From an uncultured Vicinamibacteraceae bacterium (lineage in GTDB: Bacteria > Acidobacteriota > Vicinamibacteria > Vicinamibacterales > UBA8438), in assembly GCA_964507425.1 (NCBI GenBank), contig CAZDQD010000053.1:12156-76155 (forward strand): DNA of 64,000 bases. Reading direction: 5' to 3'. Below the pieces are notes generated by a model. It ran no database searches. It saw nothing but the letters and a program-made list of their open reading frames with translations, and was not told where the DNA came from. The position numbers and the translations under genes are program-made. Shown one piece after another: positions 2,758 to 48,304 of this stretch (its first letter is position 1; each line of letters starts with the position of its first letter).

Positions 2758-2987
2758 TTAAGGCTGCCAATTAACTAGGAATCTTACTGACTGTTGGTTA
2801 TGGAGATTCAAATACTGTCGAATACGAGGATTCCAAACCGAGCCACATTGTTTTCAGTGTGTATCGCCTGTGGAAAAACTGTGGATGTCGTGTTGAATCA
2901 CCGATGAAATATTTTTTTTTCTTAACAATTCACTGAGCACCTTCAGACTTAGTCGCATGTGGATGGAGTCTTCGTGTTTTGCTTCGC

Positions 2988-3015
2988 TTGACCAGTTGTC
3001 ACAGCGCAATAAAAT
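2988..3015 (+). promoter_or_regulatory. candidate sigma70 promoter (TTGACC, 16 nt spacer, TAAAAT) upstream of the 3055 small ORF
   Basis: TTGACC at 2988-2993 and TAAAAT at 3010-3015 sit in an AT-rich intergenic stretch. Found by eye only. Confidence 0.3.
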
Positions 3016-4795: not shown

Positions 4796-6130
4796 ATGCG
4801 CTTCGCCCACTTTTGGTTAATGAGCCGCTTGTCTGTAACTATGGCTCTGCTGGTGCCGTTCTTTGCCGTAACAGCGCAAGAACTTCCGAAGACCACGGAC
4901 CCACAAACAAACCAACAACGGCTTCGTGTCACGTTAGAACACCGAAGCCGAGCCGAACACCTGACTAATGATTTTAGAATTGGCGAAAAAAGTGCCACGC
5001 GAGCACTTGTAGAGAGAACCAGACTCCGGATTAGGCTTGGCAAGAATACGGATCCAGCTCGGGTTCTTGTAGAAATGCAGGATTCCCGTGGATTGCTGCA
5101 AGATAAACCTTTTTTTTACGAGGACAACCACACCAACACATTTGATTTCTTGCAATTGAAAGCGGACTTCTTGCTGGATGAATTAATTCGAGGTAAACCA
5201 GTAGAACTTCACGTCGGACGCTTCACAATAGACCTCGGGAACAGAAGGCTAGTTGCCCGTAACAACATGCGAAACACCACTAATGCATTTGATGGCATCC
5301 ACCTAGACCTTGGATCGAATAGTTCAAACCAACTGGACGTCTTTATCACGCGTCCGGTGCTCATCAACCCAACTTCGTTGGACAGTAGTGCACGTAATGG
5401 TTATTTCTGGGGAAGCTACTATCAGGAACGGCTGAACCCAAACACGAACATTGATTTTTATTACTTGGGTCTCCATGATGACGGCCGCTTGGGCTACGAG
5501 GCTACGTATACAACCCTAGGAACGCGCCTCAACAAAAGTGGCATGCGTGGACAATTTAACTACGAGCTCGAATCGGCGTGGCAGTTCGGAAGCACAAATA
5601 ATCTGTCTCATTCCGCACATTTCCAACATGGGAGTTTCGGTTATACAGCTCCCCTCAGATGGGAACCAAACCTTTCTGTGAATTACGACTACGCAAGCGG
5701 TGATAGTGAGCCACAGGATAAACGTTTTGGCACATTCGATACGTTGTTTGGTGCACGAAGCTTCGAACTAAATTCGACGGGCATCTATGGACCATTTCTG
5801 AGGAGCAACCTGCACACGCCAGGGCTCAATCTTCAACTACGACCTAAAACGAAACTTCAGATCGAAGTTTCATATCGGCTGTTCTGGCTCGCACAACCAA
5901 CGGACCATTGGGTTGATTCGGGGCTACACGATCCAACCGGCAATTCTGGCAGCTTCCTCGGGCAACAGATTGAAGCCAAGCTTCGTATGGATGTACAGGA
6001 TTACTTTCACGTTGAGTTCGGATACGCTCACCTCTTCAAAGGTGATTACCTAGCACGCGTACCGATGAGCCCGGCGACCCCTAACTCAAACTTTGTTTAC
6101 GCAGCAGTGAATTTCAAAACGCCACTTTGA
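4796..6130 (+). CDS. outer-membrane beta-barrel protein, alginate-export (AlgE-like) family
   Basis: Signal peptide ending AVTAQ. N-terminal LRVTLEHRSRAEH...RTRLRIRLG and HVGRFTIDLGNRRLVARNNMRNTTNAFDGIHLDL resemble the Alginate_exp family. Alternating beta-strand pattern runs to the C-terminus. Confidence 0.6.
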   Translation: MRFAHFWLMSRLSVTMALLVPFFAVTAQELPKTTDPQTNQQRLRVTLEHRSRAEHLTNDFRIGEKSATRALVERTRLRIRLGKNTDPARVLVEMQDSRGLLQDKPFFYEDNHTNTFDFLQLKADFLLDELIRGKPVELHVGRFTIDLGNRRLVARNNMRNTTNAFDGIHLDLGSNSSNQLDVFITRPVLINPTSLDSSARNGYFWGSYYQERLNPNTNIDFYYLGLHDDGRLGYEATYTTLGTRLNKSGMRGQFNYELESAWQFGSTNNLSHSAHFQHGSFGYTAPLRWEPNLSVNYDYASGDSEPQDKRFGTFDTLFGARSFELNSTGIYGPFLRSNLHTPGLNLQLRPKTKLQIEVSYRLFWLAQPTDHWVDSGLHDPTGNSGSFLGQQIEAKLRMDVQDYFHVEFGYAHLFKGDYLARVPMSPATPNSNFVYAAVNFKTPL

Positions 6131-6174: not shown

Positions 6175-6250
6175 TGGTGGACCAGACGGGGGTCGAACCC
6201 GTGACCTCGTGAATGCCATTCACGCGCGCTCCCAACTGCGCCACTGGCCC
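6175..6250 (-). tRNA. tRNA-Ala (anticodon GGC), 76 nt with encoded CCA
   Basis: Reverse complement is GGGCCAGTGGCGCAGTTGGGAGCGCGCGTGAATGGCATTCACGAGGTCACGGGTTCGACCCCCGTCTGGTCCACCA. It folds as a cloverleaf with anticodon loop AUGGCAU, the G3:U70 alanine identity pair and T-loop GGTTCGA. Confidence 0.9.
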
Positions 6251-7830: not shown

Positions 7831-7927
7831 GGAAGCGAACGGGGCCCGGTGGCCCTCCCGGTCTTCAAAACCGGTCGCTCCCCGCTAGCGCGGGGGGGCT
7901 GGGTTCGACTCCCCGGCGCTTCCGCCA
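7831..7927 (+). tRNA. selC: tRNA-Sec (selenocysteine, anticodon UCA), 97 nt with encoded CCA
   Basis: GGAAGCGA acceptor, 2-nt linker, 6-bp D stem GGGGCC/GGCCCU with 4-nt loop. Anticodon stem CCGGU/ACCGG with loop CUUCAAA (UCA). 8-bp variable arm (CUCCCCGC-UAGC-GCGGGGGG), T-loop UUCGACU, discriminator G, CCA. One A-G mismatch at acceptor pair 8 and one U-C mismatch in the T stem. Confidence 0.85.
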
Positions 7928-44063: not shown

Positions 44064-45227
44064 GTGGATCGCCTCCGCATCGGCGTAGTCTACGGCGGTC
44101 GTTCAGGTGAGCACGAAGTCTCGCTCGCTTCTGCCGCCGCCATATTCAGCCAACTTGACCCCAAACGCTACGACGCCGTACCTGTCTTTGTCGACAAGAA
44201 CGGCCGATGGTCACTCGCTGATGCTATCCCAGCAACTATGTCAGCAGGCGAAATCATTCAAAACCAACACGCTAGGGCTAGACCGAACACTGCGGTCCAG
44301 CCCAGCGAGGCCCATTTCGTGACATACCCTTCCGAAGAGACCGTTATCACTATTTCCCGTGATAACTCCACCATGGGGCAAAGCGTCGATCGCGCAGTAG
44401 TAAGAGGCCTCTCCTTAGACATAATTTTTCCAATTATCCATGGTCCTTTTGGTGAAGATGGCAGCCTACAGGGACTTCTAGAGCTAGCAAACGTTCCCTT
44501 TGTCGGTTCAGGAGTACTCGCGTCTGCACTAGCAATGGACAAGTCAATGTCGAAGGTTGTTTTCGCAGCGCACGGTCTTCCGCTTGTGCCGCACATGGTC
44601 GTGAAGGCGTCGGAATGGGAAACAAACCCGGAGACGATCGTGGACAAGATCAATCAAGTCTTTAGCTACCCGGTGTTTGTCAAACCTGCCAACCTTGGCT
44701 CCAGTATTGGAGTTTCACGAGTAACCAACAAGGCAGAACTCGAAGCCGCCCTCTCTAAAGCGTACTCACTTGACAATACTTTGCTTGTCGAAAAAGCCGT
44801 TATAAAGGCACGCGAAATTGAATGTTCCGTTCTCGGGAACGAATCACCTCTAACCTCAGTGCCAGGAGAAGTGATTCCATCAGGTGAGTTTTACGATTAC
44901 GAATCAAAATATCTTGACGATCGGTCGGAGCTTAGAATTCCTGCAAACCTGTCAATAGAACTTAGCAACAAAGTTCGCGACCTCAGCGTTAAAGCGTTTC
45001 TCGCTCTTGGGTGTACAGGCATGGCGCGTGTAGATTTTCTACTCGACCAAGATAATGAAACCCTCTATATCAACGAAGTAAACACACTACCTGGTTTCAC
45101 GACCATCAGTCAGTACGCCAAACTTTGGGAGGCTACGGGCCTAGCGTATTCTGCATTACTCGATAGGCTGATCGAATTAGCGCTCGCCCGGCATGACCGC
45201 AAGAACCGCATCGAAACCTTACGTTAA
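44064..45227 (+). CDS. ddl: D-alanine--D-alanine ligase
   Basis: GTG at 44064 gives VDRLRIGVVYGGRSGEHEVSLASA, the canonical Ddl N-terminus. ATP-grasp body ends in NEVNTLPGFT. The track start at 43962 would run through the tgt 5' end. Confidence 0.9.
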   Translation: MDRLRIGVVYGGRSGEHEVSLASAAAIFSQLDPKRYDAVPVFVDKNGRWSLADAIPATMSAGEIIQNQHARARPNTAVQPSEAHFVTYPSEETVITISRDNSTMGQSVDRAVVRGLSLDIIFPIIHGPFGEDGSLQGLLELANVPFVGSGVLASALAMDKSMSKVVFAAHGLPLVPHMVVKASEWETNPETIVDKINQVFSYPVFVKPANLGSSIGVSRVTNKAELEAALSKAYSLDNTLLVEKAVIKAREIECSVLGNESPLTSVPGEVIPSGEFYDYESKYLDDRSELRIPANLSIELSNKVRDLSVKAFLALGCTGMARVDFLLDQDNETLYINEVNTLPGFTTISQYAKLWEATGLAYSALLDRLIELALARHDRKNRIETLR

Positions 45228-45387
45228 CGATCAGTCTTTTTGTATAAACCAATCCGTATCCAAAACTTCTTCGAGCCGTCGTGATAGAGCTGTGCGTCAG
45301 CGAACTTGAATAAAGAAATCTTCGCCAAAACCGATACAGTCTCACGAAGACCAAAGAAATTATTTTGACTTTTGACCCCTATTGTGC

Positions 45388-45415
45388 TTGACACCAAGTT
45401 TTTCTCATCCATAAT
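45388..45415 (+). promoter_or_regulatory. near-consensus sigma70 promoter (TTGACA, 16 nt spacer, CATAAT) for the lysine-rich micro-gene(s)
   Basis: TTGACA at 45388-45393 and CATAAT at 45410-45415, about 95 nt upstream of ATG at 45512. Confidence 0.5.
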
Positions 45416-45511
45416 CTACATCTTGTATGAGGGTGGACGGCTCAGCCCACCTGTAGTGATGTCTCGGTGCCGGTAACAAAGCTGAGCAGCCACATTCCAT
45501 AAGGAGGAAGA

Positions 45512-45676
45512 ATGGCGAAGAAGAAGGCAGCGAAGAAGAAGGCAGCGAAGAAGAAGGCCACCAAGAAAAAGGTAGCCAAGAAAAAGGCCACCAAGAAAAA
45601 GGCCGCCAAGAAAAAAGCCACCAAGAAAAAGGCCGCCAAGAAAAAGGCCGCCAAGAAAGGCGCCAAAAAACGTTAA
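45512..45676 (+). CDS. 54-aa lysine/alanine pentapeptide-repeat basic protein (histone-H1-tail-like)
   Basis: Not in the track (shorter than 60 aa). Translation is MAKKKAAKKKAAKKKATKKKVAKKKATKKKAAKKKATKKKAAKKKAAKKGAKKR. AAGGAGG at 45501-45507 sits just upstream and a terminator lies downstream. Confidence 0.7.
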   Translation: MAKKKAAKKKAAKKKATKKKVAKKKATKKKAAKKKATKKKAAKKKAAKKGAKKR

Positions 45677-45698
45677 ACCCGTAGCTACTTAACTATGT

Positions 45699-45739
45699 AA
45701 TGGGGATGTCCACGAGAAAGTTGGCATCCCCATTATTTT
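45699..45739 (+). terminator. rho-independent terminator after the first lysine-rich gene
   Basis: AATGGGGATG (45699-45708) pairs with CATCCCCATT (45725-45734), followed by ATTTT. Confidence 0.6.
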
Positions 45740-45844
45740 GAGGTCTCCGTGCATCTGCACGGAAACAGCGATCCGGAGCACCGAGACAAATTGTTAAGGT
45801 TCTGCGGGCCGTAATCCAAAACCGAAGGGGGGGAGAACCCGACC

Positions 45845-45994
45845 ATGGCAAAGAAGAAAGCTGCAAAGAAGAAGGCCACCAAGAAAAAGGCCGCCAAGAA
45901 AAAGGAAGCCAAGAAAAAGGCCACCAAGAAAAAGGCCGCCAAGAAAAAGGCCACCAAGAAAAAGGCCGCAAAGAAGGGCGCCAAAAAGCGCTAG
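45845..45994 (+). CDS. 49-aa lysine/alanine pentapeptide-repeat basic protein (paralog of 45512-45676)
   Basis: Not in the track. Translation is MAKKKAAKKKATKKKAAKKKEAKKKATKKKAAKKKATKKKAAKKGAKKR. GGGAG at 45831-45835 is 9 nt upstream, and a strong terminator lies downstream. Confidence 0.7.
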   Translation: MAKKKAAKKKATKKKAAKKKEAKKKATKKKAAKKKATKKKAAKKGAKKR

Positions 45995-46012
45995 TCGCGG
46001 TTAATCGCGATG

Positions 46013-46047
46013 AAAAGGGGGGCCCACACTGGGCCCCCCTTTCTTTT
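46013..46047. terminator. bidirectional rho-independent terminator between convergent genes
   Basis: Perfect 9-bp GC stem GGGGGGCCC (46017-46025) / GGGCCCCCC (46031-46039), flanked by AAAA on one side and TTTCTTTT on the other. Confidence 0.8.
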
Positions 46048-46114
46048 ACTGCCGGTGCTTCCTCGAGCCGAAGCAGTAAACCGTTCGAGCGTTCACTGTT
46101 ACGAATCCCCTGGA

Positions 46115-48304
46115 CTACTGTCTCACACTGGACTCTGGTTGCCGATCGAACGGCTGGACACCATCCCAGACTAAAACGCGCTCGATAACATCGCCTGGTT
46201 CAATACTGCCAAGAACCTCCATGCCCGCAACGACGTGTCCGAAGGCCGTGTAACGTGCATCGAGCTGAGGCTGAGGTGAGTATGTGATGAAAAACTGACT
46301 ACCACCCGTATCGGCCCAATCACGAGCAATACCCACGGTCCCCGGAAGGAAGGGTCGGCTATTCAGTTCGTCACGAATGGTGTAGCCTGGCCCTCCTTCG
46401 TTATCACTGCGCGGATCTCCAGCCTGAACGACGTTGTTGGGTATAACGCGATGAAATGTTAATCCGTCATAGAACCCCTGCCGTGCCAAAGTCATAAAGT
46501 TATGCGACACAAGTGGCGCATCGACCACTGCCAATTCAATTTCAATCGTTCCATGAACCGTCTCTATATAGGCATGGGGTGACACACGCGGCCTAACCAA
46601 ATCAGCGGATTCGTAGTTCACCTGTCGCAAGCTAGGTGCTGGTCGAATCCTATTTCCAGAAACGCCTGGCGAAAGCCGCTCCAAATGGTGGTCAGCCTTA
46701 AGACGCACCGCCCAATCTCGATCGGTAAGTGCTTTACTTAAAGTATCTCTTGCCAGCTCGCCATCAAATTGAGAAAGTGCATCGAGTGCCGCAGCTCTCG
46801 CAACATATGACGGGTCCGGCAACGCCAACTCGTAGGCCTCTACGAAAAGTTGTTCGGCACCCTCTGGTCGAATTTCGGCTAACAAACGTAACGCTGTCTT
46901 TCGAACGACAACATCAGAAGCCGTTAATCTTGTTCTTAAAATACGTGCAGCGTCCTCGCTACCGACCGCGACTAATGATTTAAGTACTGACGGAACAACG
47001 CGCTGATCTTCATCGTTCAACATCAACAGCAACCGATACTGTGCAGCCTCCTTAGGTACCCAACGCAACCCATCGGCAATAGCGGCACGGACGCGCCAAT
47101 CTTGGTCGGACGAGAATCCTGACAGGACCAACACAAAAGTATCTGGGTCGGTTCGAGCAAGGGCACGAAAGGCAGCCGCTCGCAAAAATGCCCACGGATG
47201 ATCCAACAGTTCAATAAAAACTTCGACAGAGGCCAAACTGTTTTGTTGGGAAAGTGCATTTACCGCAATAAGTCGAAGATGTTGGTCGAGTCGACGAATA
47301 CGAACAAAACGATCCAGTGCAGCCGCCGCTTTAGGTGCATCAATTTCTGCCAAAGCCTGAACCGCAGCAATGACAACATTACGGTCTCTCCGGTCAAGGT
47401 CGAGAAGAGCTTCAAGTGGTTCGATCGCGCGAACGTCACCAAGTCGACCGAGACCACGCGCCGCCAAAGATACTCCAAAGCTTCCCTGGACACCTGACAA
47501 AGTTTCAAGAGCCGAGAGCGCCCGCGCGTCTCCTGTCTGTCCAAGTGCGTAAGCAACAGGCCACCACCAAAGAATTGGCTGCCCCCCGTCGTCCAACACT
47601 GCTTCAGCTAACTGATCAAAAGCCTTTAAATCACCCAATGCGTAAACACCGAGGCGAAAAGCTTCAATCTCTGCGTCGAGCGGGTAATCAATATCCTCTG
47701 GGTCCACCACAAACGCGGCTGTTACATAACGCCCCACCATAGACCCGATGTCTTCAACTGCGGAAACCGCACCAATCCGAGCAAGAGCTTGCGCGGCTTG
47801 CCCCTGCACCTTTGGAGAAATGTCGTTCAGAGCAGAACTCAACGGAACAGTTGCAGCTACATCTCCAATCAAACCTAAACCAAAAGCCGCCATCCGACGA
47901 ACTTCCATCTCCGGATCGTCAAGTAAATCAAGCAGTATTTCGACACCTTCCGACAAACCGACACGGCCTACCGCAAGCGCCACCCGTCGACGAAGGTATG
48001 CTTCATCAGATTTTGCGAGAACTTCAAGATCAGGTTGCGGTATGGGCTTCGGCGGGATAATTAACAACAAATCGTCAGTTTCGGCGGTAGGGGGCGGGGG
48101 CGGGGGCGGCAGATCATCCGCCAATTTCCTCTGATCTTCAAGTCGTAAAATCCAAGACATTCTTTCGTCTATCGAGGGCAACTCAGTTACTACATCCACC
48201 ACGAGTGGTGCGGACGCACAACCGTAAGTTGCCATCAAAATGGTGACGACGGAAGAACGTACTAACAGACCTTGAAAATCGGCGGTAAGCATCGCCGCCG
48301 CCAT
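46115..48304 (-). CDS. putative lipoprotein: HEAT/armadillo-like repeat region fused to a C-terminal cyclophilin-type peptidyl-prolyl isomerase
   Basis: N-terminal hydrophobic segment ending ATYGC. Repeated D/E-x-VR-x-xAAxALG HEAT-like units. The C-terminal ~160 aa (GTIEIELAVVDAPLVSHNFMTLARQGFYDGLTFHRVIPNNVVQAGDP...GGSQFFITY) is cyclophilin-like. Confidence 0.8.
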   Translation of the reverse strand: MAAAMLTADFQGLLVRSSVVTILMATYGCASAPLVVDVVTELPSIDERMSWILRLEDQRKLADDLPPPPPPPTAETDDLLLIIPPKPIPQPDLEVLAKSDEAYLRRRVALAVGRVGLSEGVEILLDLLDDPEMEVRRMAAFGLGLIGDVAATVPLSSALNDISPKVQGQAAQALARIGAVSAVEDIGSMVGRYVTAAFVVDPEDIDYPLDAEIEAFRLGVYALGDLKAFDQLAEAVLDDGGQPILWWWPVAYALGQTGDARALSALETLSGVQGSFGVSLAARGLGRLGDVRAIEPLEALLDLDRRDRNVVIAAVQALAEIDAPKAAAALDRFVRIRRLDQHLRLIAVNALSQQNSLASVEVFIELLDHPWAFLRAAAFRALARTDPDTFVLVLSGFSSDQDWRVRAAIADGLRWVPKEAAQYRLLLMLNDEDQRVVPSVLKSLVAVGSEDAARILRTRLTASDVVVRKTALRLLAEIRPEGAEQLFVEAYELALPDPSYVARAAALDALSQFDGELARDTLSKALTDRDWAVRLKADHHLERLSPGVSGNRIRPAPSLRQVNYESADLVRPRVSPHAYIETVHGTIEIELAVVDAPLVSHNFMTLARQGFYDGLTFHRVIPNNVVQAGDPRSDNEGGPGYTIRDELNSRPFLPGTVGIARDWADTGGSQFFITYSPQPQLDARYTAFGHVVAGMEVLGSIEPGDVIERVLVWDGVQPFDRQPESSVRQ

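Follow-up and report, generated by a model that had tools for sequence, protein, structure and literature searches.

Conserved lysine-rich micro-genes with structured leaders between ddl and a convergent isomerase gene in Vicinamibacteria

The chlamydial histone H1-like protein Hc2 is built of consecutive lysine-rich pentamers, which combine with a hexamer into higher-order repeats of 36 aa, and its length is polymorphic in frame (PMC2848022). Proteins of the AlgP/PhaF type and Burkholderia-type H1-like proteins carry Ala/Lys-rich polycationic segments that bind DNA, polyphosphate granules or RNA (PMC9239181, PMC12818456). Among ribosomal proteins, bL37 has only 24 aa with a pI of 12 and is unannotated in M. 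tuberculosis, and bS22 has 33 aa (PMC10081302). Here we describe a pair of lysine-rich micro-genes and the family to which they belong. The pair lies in a 64,000-nucleotide stretch of DNA (hereafter the window) from an uncultured Vicinamibacteraceae bacterium (GenBank assembly GCA_964507425.1, contig CAZDQD010000053.1, positions 12,156 to 76,155 of the forward strand); coordinates are those of the window, or of the related contig where one is named.

The two open reading frames (ORFs) had been picked out in a first-pass annotation, made from the letters of the sequence, as tandem unannotated genes for proteins made only of pentapeptide repeats. They are:

45512-45676, plus strand: gene 1, from ATG to TAA, 54 aa with 31 Lys, MAKKK(A[AT]KKK)n...AAKKGAKKR
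45845-45994, plus strand: gene 2, from ATG to TAG, 49 aa with 28 Lys, a paralogue of gene 1

Both were found at these positions, unannotated, and the MAKKK start and AAKKGAKKR end are indeed common to the two. They fit the formula M-(A[AT]KKK)n-...AAKKGAKKR, in which the repeat spans the protein from Met to stop. Tandem Repeats Finder delimited period-15 arrays at 45518-45658 (9.4 copies) and 45851-45975 (8.3 copies), 15 nt being the sole period. The lysine-rich composition was borne out as well: Lys accounts for 57% of the residues, compared with 3.4% in the long ORFs of the window, and the peptides are free of hydrophobic and aromatic residues and of Pro, with no domain besides the repeat. 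Their AAG:AAA ratio is 41:18, the background being 216:247, and no run of A exceeds 6. When the paralogs are aligned codon by codon, 35 codons are identical, 11 differ synonymously and 4 non-synonymously, and there is one indel of 5 codons; synonymous variation with the peptide kept, as previously proposed, is thus observed. An exact-sequence look-up of both peptides in a public gene catalogue returned no record.

Related loci were sampled in two ways, by an exact promoter/leader pattern scan, which yielded at least 120 metagenomic loci, and via ddl, the gene upstream, which yielded 6 genome loci. Because the promoter/leader served as the search pattern, loci were ascertained by their leader and not by their ORF, and all family counts given below are among the loci so collected. 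With the exception of L097, every locus with ~200 nt or more of downstream DNA carries an ORF of the form MAKK...KK[RK], and in about half of the loci a second ORF lies ~200 nt further on (53 single-gene versus 58 two-gene loci). In L097, with the cassette on the minus strand and the promoter 184 nt into the reverse-complemented contig, both promoter and 5′ block are present and lead into a ThiE-like coding region, probably through a rearrangement or in a chimera.

The family peptides are 13-60 aa long, with a sharp mode at 16-17 aa (59 + 59 of 169 ORFs) and, at that length, no repeat array; a typical example is MAKKAKGGKKKAGKKR. The long-form tail of 35-60-aa ORFs includes L007, L089, L103, L112, L126, L146, L150, L185, L191 and L198. 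The repeat proteins of 54 and 49 aa in the window are, by comparison of sequences, a lineage-specific expansion, and the description as proteins made only of pentapeptide repeats, which holds in the window lineage, does not extend to the family. In related genomes of 49-71% GC, micro-ORFs found downstream of ddl are the following:

L007, downstream of ddl: 45 aa, MAKKKAAKKKATKKK...GAKKR
L010, downstream of ddl: MAKKAAKGGKKKGGKKR, in two copies
L016, downstream of ddl: MAKKAKKAAKKAAKKTAKK[KR], in two copies
L023 and L084, downstream of ddl: similar peptides

Evidence that selection acts on the encoded peptides comes from the way in which the ORFs vary. The 139 distinct coding sequences specify 59 peptides, one of which, MAKKAKGGKKKAAKKR, is encoded by 16 different DNA sequences. 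Summed column entropy at codon positions 1/2/3 is 3.0/3.8/13.2 for the 16-aa forms (41 coding sequences) and 2.9/5.6/13.6 for the 17-aa forms (51 coding sequences), and AAG:AAA over the family is 1226:180. Lys positions are fixed, the spacers between them are small residues (G/A/T/S/V) and the KKR end is kept; the ATG, the spacing to the Shine-Dalgarno (SD) sequence and the stop are conserved among orthologues. In 17 of the 57 distinct two-gene loci, both paralogs specify identical peptides while 4-9 of their 14-17 codons differ synonymously, and the edit distance between gene 1 and gene 2 is 1.67 within a locus versus 6.54 between loci. As a rule, then, the peptides of the two paralogs in a genome are equal or almost so despite synonymous change, and the paralogs track each other at the protein level.

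These patterns bear on the idea that no protein is made, the locus being a non-coding repeat or an RNA gene, or the antisense FFLAAFF ORFs being the real genes. Such ORFs do exist opposite the two genes, as the first-pass annotation had remarked, and gene callers choose them at related loci (L003, L004 and L006; in P0005 the call has an over-extended start). Slippage can moreover create low-complexity repeats, and the transcript has conserved RNA structure. Variation at the third codon positions of the sense strand, with many synonymous encodings per peptide, argues otherwise, as does the conservation of ATG, SD spacing and stop, and the 16-17-aa orthologues permit no antisense ORF of any length. 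A further observation comes from L207 (2810-3280; ENA metagenome assemblies, one labelled marine). There leader 1 is recognisable, the ATG of gene 1 has become ATA and its lysine repeat has decayed; gene 2 is intact with 33 aa, its public gene call beginning 59 codons too early. Because gene 1 of L207 decayed after loss of its start, the repeat is not upheld once untranslated, the opposite of the case named beforehand as contradicting the two genes, that of a nucleotide repeat kept without its frame. We consider the antisense ORFs to be by-products of the repeat, and a locus without protein to be improbable in the extreme. On this comparative evidence both ORFs are conserved, unannotated genes under purifying selection on the peptide. 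Their status as genes had been rightly recognised and somewhat undersold; the supporting signals are conserved in more than 100 related loci.

No known protein family accounts for these peptides. Pfam HC2 (PF07382) gave 7.0 and 7.2 bits (E 6.5-8) for a gathering cut-off of 40 bits, and NCBIfam NF038053, the Burkholderia-type H1-like family, gave 10 and 8 bits for a cut-off of 80. The bL37, bS22/DUF1713, bTHX and eL41 families of Pfam and NCBIfam yielded no match at E up to 10, peptides of at least 20 aa being scanned. A sequence search of the PDB returned only SigA (E 8.7), and PHROGs gave no significant match. Phmmer-type searches of 5.8 billion proteins gave no match at E 1e-3; with E relaxed to 10 they found 8 lysine-rich matches, one of which (P0005) is a mis-started relative of gene 2. 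HMM-type searches for relatives, as had been proposed, produced no significant protein-family match; composition correction defeats homology search for peptides of this kind. In the papers searched, on lysine-rich small proteins and microproteins, neither this family nor its leaders are described. Of the kinship suggested earlier with H1-like proteins (Hc1/Hc2, BpH, AlgP), composition stands and descent does not, scores of 7-10 bits facing cut-offs of 40-80.

The signals around the genes are arranged as follows:

45360-45379, plus strand: T-tract with a repeated TTTTGAC motif, ~20 nt upstream of the -35, possibly an UP-like element or a regulator site
45388-45415, plus strand: sigma-70-type promoter, -35 TTGACA (45388-45393), 16-nt spacer, -10 CATAAT (45410-45415)
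45416-45511, plus strand: leader 1, the 5′ untranslated region of gene 1, ~95 nt, structured, ending with the SD AAGGAGG (45501-45507)
45697-45739, plus strand: terminator-like hairpin after gene 1, 14-bp stem (45697-45710 / 45723-45736), then TATTTT
45740-45844, plus strand: leader 2 in a reduced form, with a hairpin (45746-45763), AATCC (45813-45817) and the G-rich SD GAAGGGGGGGAG (45824-45835)
46014-46049, plus strand: intrinsic terminator after gene 2, called by a terminator scan at 46014-46042 (13-bp stem with 9 G-C pairs, loop of 3, then CTTTT)

Two layouts occur. In class A, which includes the window, the promoter precedes leader 1 (~95 nt, with its SD of the AAGGAGG type), gene 1, and a hairpin with a T-run; a 100-320-nt leader 2, gene 2 and a terminator come next. 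In class B, promoter and 5′ block are as in class A and run directly into leader-2-type sequence and a single gene.

The promoter indicated by the first-pass annotation has 11/12 matches to TTGACA-16-CATAAT and is the sole such site in 45000-46400, where 0.7 would be expected. It is conserved in related loci: the core GTGCTTGACA...TCCATAAT is nearly invariant from 49 to 71% GC, and promoter and first ~45 nt downstream are almost identical among related genomes (GTGCTTGACA-N16-CATAATCTACATCTnGTATGAGGG). In 121 distinct promoter regions, those of 68-71% GC genomes included, a T-rich block followed by TTGAC is found at the same position; in the window TTGAC occurs three times in a row (45365, 45373 and 45388). 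Transcription is predicted to start near 45421-45423. The SD motifs that had been noticed for both genes are present, 4 nt separating that of gene 1 from its ATG and 9 nt the G-run of gene 2 from its own. From the T-tract/TTGAC block, the consensus hexamers and the strong SDs together we infer very high expression.

As previously suggested, each gene also has its own terminator, found by the scan for gene 2 and by folding for gene 1. The intergenic fold (45677-45853, z = -4.93) is dominated by the hairpin after gene 1, which the scan missed on account of a loop longer than 8 nt; in the relative L141 the scan does call a hairpin and T-run after gene 1. A hairpin with a T-run lies 3′ of gene 1 in 42/54 related loci, of gene 2 in 45/55 and of single genes in 42/45. 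No sigma-70-like promoter for gene 2 was found in the window (scan of 45000-46400), in L141 or in L010. Since no second promoter of this type was seen between the genes, gene 2 is probably transcribed by read-through past the terminator or from a promoter of a different type. The first-pass annotation saw no difference between the control regions of the two genes; in relatives gene 2 has a much larger, second RNA structure and no sigma-70-like promoter.

Runs of Lys codons directly before an intrinsic terminator, followed by a second structured leader and a gene lacking a sigma-70 promoter, could also be expected of regulatory ORFs, that is, Lys-codon leader peptides which sense Lys-tRNA supply or ribosome stalling and control termination or the downstream copy. 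An attenuator leader peptide of a downstream operon is excluded because nothing on the same strand lies downstream: the next gene is convergent in essentially every locus, no biosynthetic or other same-strand gene follows the cassette, and the one gene left to be regulated would encode the same peptide again. Loci with a single gene (class B) are frequent, as the counts above show, conservation extends beyond the Lys codons to the G/A spacers and the KKR end, and in the window ~20 nt separate the stop of gene 1 from the extended stem (45697) and 26 nt from the G+C-rich core of that stem (~45702). We regard this explanation as very unlikely.

Leader 1 contains three conserved elements:

45416-45433, plus strand: invariant 5′ block CTACATCTnGTATGAGGG, conserved among leaders
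45431-36 / 45447-52, plus strand: local hairpin GGGTGG / CCACCT, pairing in the alignment
45433-45446 with 45481-45493, plus strand: long-range helix, pairing in the alignment

Among 71 distinct leader-1 sequences 25 columns are invariant. The complementary segments GGCTCAGC (45439-46) and GCTGAGC (45481-87), already remarked upon in the first-pass annotation, are paired in the minimum-free-energy fold of the window leader, and the helix they form is conserved among relatives. The local hairpin (GGGUGG/CCACCC) is 78% paired and covaries modestly, a few of its G-C pairs being replaced by A-U. In the long-range helix, the 5′ arm and loop of this hairpin (GUGG..GCUCAGC) pair with GCUGAGC.GCCAC, which immediately precedes the SD. 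In a MAFFT alignment made without regard to structure this helix is 84.5% paired versus 25-49% when slid, and only 17 cells change on both sides. Because both helices use the GUGG segment they are mutually exclusive, and a two-state switch is therefore possible. An upstream-ORF-like block (45427-45456) is also seen in leader 1, with an invariant AUG 12 nt after the -10 and an in-frame stop (TAG or TGA/TAA) in most leaders. As a coding sequence of 9-10 codons it was rejected: its entropy by codon position (6.2/7.9/4.5) is not coding-like, stops come early in several lineages and the predicted peptides differ widely.

Upstream of gene 2, most relatives have a strongly covarying hairpin of ~100 nt and the SD GAAGGGGGGGAU. 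For leader-2 sequences that differ greatly from one another, RNAfold predicts a single long, irregular hairpin with the cap UGCC-AGGC-GGCA; after it, AUCCC and the GGGAU end of GAAGGGGGGGAU pair to form a small hairpin. RNAalifold on MAFFT leader alignments had given only 3-4 invariant pairs because the variable hairpins were misaligned, and was superseded by hand-specified helices and a covariance model. The leader-2 model, R1, was built from 16 class-B sequences and matches 59 loci, class-A gene-2 leaders among them. Although covariation was counted on a model-fitted alignment, which inflates the figures towards structure, the effect remains a large one: pairing reaches 87% of cells versus 71% after shuffling, 24/30 pairs change on both sides (230 cells; e.g. 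UA 26 / CG 24, GC 32 / CG 21), and the covariation score is 0.368 versus 0.131 shuffled and at most 0.042 slid.

Neither leader corresponds to an Rfam 15 family at gathering threshold, and 45200-46200 and nine related loci gave only sub-threshold noise. Possible mimicry of ribosomal RNA (rRNA) by the leaders (UGGCUCAG and GUGCCAG..GCAGCC resemble 16S segments) was set aside, 8-mer matches to a 1.5-kb RNA being expected by chance. In L170, two leader-2 matches lie on opposite strands (1029-1126, minus; 2919-3015, plus) with PPIase (peptidyl-prolyl isomerase) fragments on both sides, either an inverted duplication or a chimeric assembly.

In the reading that we favour, the locus is a self-contained cassette that expresses a free-standing polycationic micro-protein and has been passed on vertically in much of the class Vicinamibacteria. 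The peptide changes its length by gain or loss of A-x-K-K-(K) units, and the window holds the expanded form twice. Presumably made in large amounts, it may act as a sequence-unspecific binder or charge neutraliser of polyanions (DNA, RNA/ribosomes, polyphosphate), comparable to a protamine, a peptide polyamine or the tail of histone H1 on its own. Its synthesis would be tuned by the leaders after initiation of transcription, possibly through feedback by the peptide, and gene 2, transcribed by read-through past the gene-1 terminator or from a promoter not of the sigma-70 type, would deliver the same product under a second regime. The lysine content argues for polyanion binding, and the plasticity of length parallels the variation of lysine-rich pentamers in Hc2 (PMC2848022). 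We hold with moderate confidence that this is an abundant, sequence-unspecific polyanion-binding micro-protein, tuned at its ribosome-binding sites by the leaders and produced from two differently controlled genes. Nucleoid compaction is a conjectural role; binding of ribosomes, RNA or polyphosphate is equally compatible with the sequences.

Several points weigh against this interpretation, beside the inflation of leader-2 covariation mentioned above. The cassette is missing from the syntenic site in 8 related Vicinamibacterales genomes (L008, L011, L013-L015 and L017-L019), where ddl and the convergent PPIase gene are 10-115 nt apart (~5150-5270 in L011-L019, 2164-2235 in L008); in these genomes the function must therefore be dispensable, have moved elsewhere or have been replaced. 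The window copy of leader 1 has a fold no more stable than those of shuffled sequences (z = -0.9), and leader 2 of the window is degenerate, with a weak match to R1 (10.2 bits, E 0.029 over 801 nt) that lies chiefly in the SD part; the leader-2 region is strongly structured despite this weak match, as the intergenic fold indicates. Peptide feedback and read-through into gene 2 are conjecture. Finally, the exact 16-17-aa sequence is kept over many synonymous changes, which hints at a specific partner because conservation is tighter than a pure charge carrier needs.

Such a partner could be the ribosome. The peptide might be a lineage-specific ribosomal or RNA-specific micro-protein resembling bL37, bS22, bTHX or eL41, with the leaders as autogenous operators that mimic its RNA site. 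At 16-17 aa with ~10 positive charges and a tightly conserved sequence, the modal form falls in the size and charge class of bL37 and bS22; promoter and SD are very strong; the covarying leaders abut the SD as in ribosomal-protein operons; and two paralogs for the same peptide recall alternative ribosomal-protein paralogs. Variation from 13 to 60 aa by repeat expansion would, however, be unusual for a protein sitting in an rRNA pocket, and the peptides have only small spacers, without aromatic or polar residues that could serve as anchors. In the 8 genomes the syntenic site lacks the cassette, no Pfam or NCBIfam ribosomal protein or PDB chain was matched, and the rRNA mimicry comes down to chance-level 8-mers. 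This, the main alternative, is possible, if rather unlikely.

A bolder reading can be formulated, which we offer as a speculation that is on the doubtful side. The family could represent a new class of effector, a very abundant 16-17-aa polycation whose level is sensed and set by two new cis-regulatory RNA motifs, leader 1 and leader 2, and which would serve as a clade-specific ribosomal or RNA-bound micro-protein or as an organiser of RNA/polyphosphate-peptide condensates; the marine lineage of the window would have re-tuned it by a three-fold expansion.

The cassette is flanked by tgt (minus) and ddl (plus) before it and by the gene of a HEAT-repeat PPIase (minus) after it, which is convergent and ends at 46115, facing the gene-2 terminator. 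The closest relatives of the window Ddl (52-60% identity) are metagenome-assembled genomes named Vicinamibacteraceae, Vicinamibacterales or Acidobacteria. When synteny was examined in relatives, as had been advised, the cassette lay between ddl and the convergent PPIase gene in essentially all loci, with the order tgt(-) / ddl(+) / [optional TPR gene] / cassette(+) / HEAT-PPIase(-). About half of the loci, many soil lineages among them, have the TPR-like gene (~520 aa; L010 5149-6711) between ddl and cassette; the window lacks it. A functional tie of the cassette to the upstream ATP-grasp gene, ddl, was dropped because the TPR gene is often inserted between them.

Two close relatives, L001 and L002 (ENA metagenome assemblies with ERZ sample accessions, 99.7% identical to the window), contain the same two genes. 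L005 has one 39-aa gene (5752-5871) where the near-identical window has two, owing either to recombination between paralogs or to assembly collapse of the repeat. Contigs L003, L004 and L006 end inside the repeat. Elsewhere in the window, the only Rfam matches at gathering level are a selenocysteine tRNA (7831-7923, plus, 59.7 bits) and an ordinary tRNA (6178-6250, minus); from the former, the organism probably uses selenoproteins.

Vicinamibacteria (Acidobacteria subdivision 6) are common in soil metagenomes, and to our knowledge their molecular biology is almost unexplored. A gene family with strong signals, spread across the clade, has here escaped both gene callers, because 16-17 aa is far below their length limits, and homology tools, because composition filters remove such peptides; for the longer forms, callers annotate the wrong strand or the wrong start. 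Two conserved RNA structures outside Rfam, both at ribosome-binding sites and one rich in compensatory changes, are candidate riboregulators. If the peptide should prove to be a major polycation, it would bear on the packaging of nucleic acids or polyphosphate and on survival of starvation and desiccation, and the natural series of 13-60 residues lends itself to asking how much charge such molecules require. The first-pass annotation, taken as a whole, had detected a real finding and was over-specific on the pentapeptide repeat and on an H1-like function.

The components of the locus belong to known kinds, a small basic nucleic-acid-binding protein and cis-regulatory leaders. For their combination (a clade-wide poly-lysine peptide of 16-17 aa, protein-identical paralogs and two RNA motifs), we found no described counterpart in the literature searched. 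Attenuator leader peptides of his, trp and thr operons are similar in being short ORFs dominated by one codon family with an intrinsic terminator close behind; they differ in that the peptide described here is conserved, has its own strong promoter and SD, occurs in a duplicate copy and has no operon downstream. Structured leaders adjoining the SD are typical of ribosomal-protein genes. The peptides share with bL37, bS22, bTHX and eL41 their size, charge and strong expression signals, and with bL37 also the fact of having been missed by annotation. There is no sequence relation to these proteins, and in contrast to them the family is of low complexity (Lys/Ala/Gly) and variable length, with an empty site in some relatives.

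Closer in composition are the H1-like proteins. Hc2 (hctB) and Bordetella BpH1 likewise consist of lysine-rich pentamers with Ala/Thr/Val spacers that gain or lose units in frame (PMC2848022), and like them the micro-proteins would presumably bind nucleic acids by charge, to judge from their sequence. Unlike Hc2, which has 165-237 aa, 2 basic residues per pentamer and conserved flanking regions, the window peptides have 3 Lys per pentamer, a 15-nt period only and nothing besides the repeat, and the family mode is 16-17 aa. AlgP/PhaF and the NF038053 type have in common with them Ala/Lys-rich, low-complexity polycationic segments. There, however, these segments form the tails of larger proteins that begin with a folded domain, and their KPAA units contain Pro, whereas the window peptides have neither Pro nor a non-repeat domain. 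The likeness to Hc2/BpH1 and to AlgP/PhaF thus appears to be one of composition and probable physics, not of descent.

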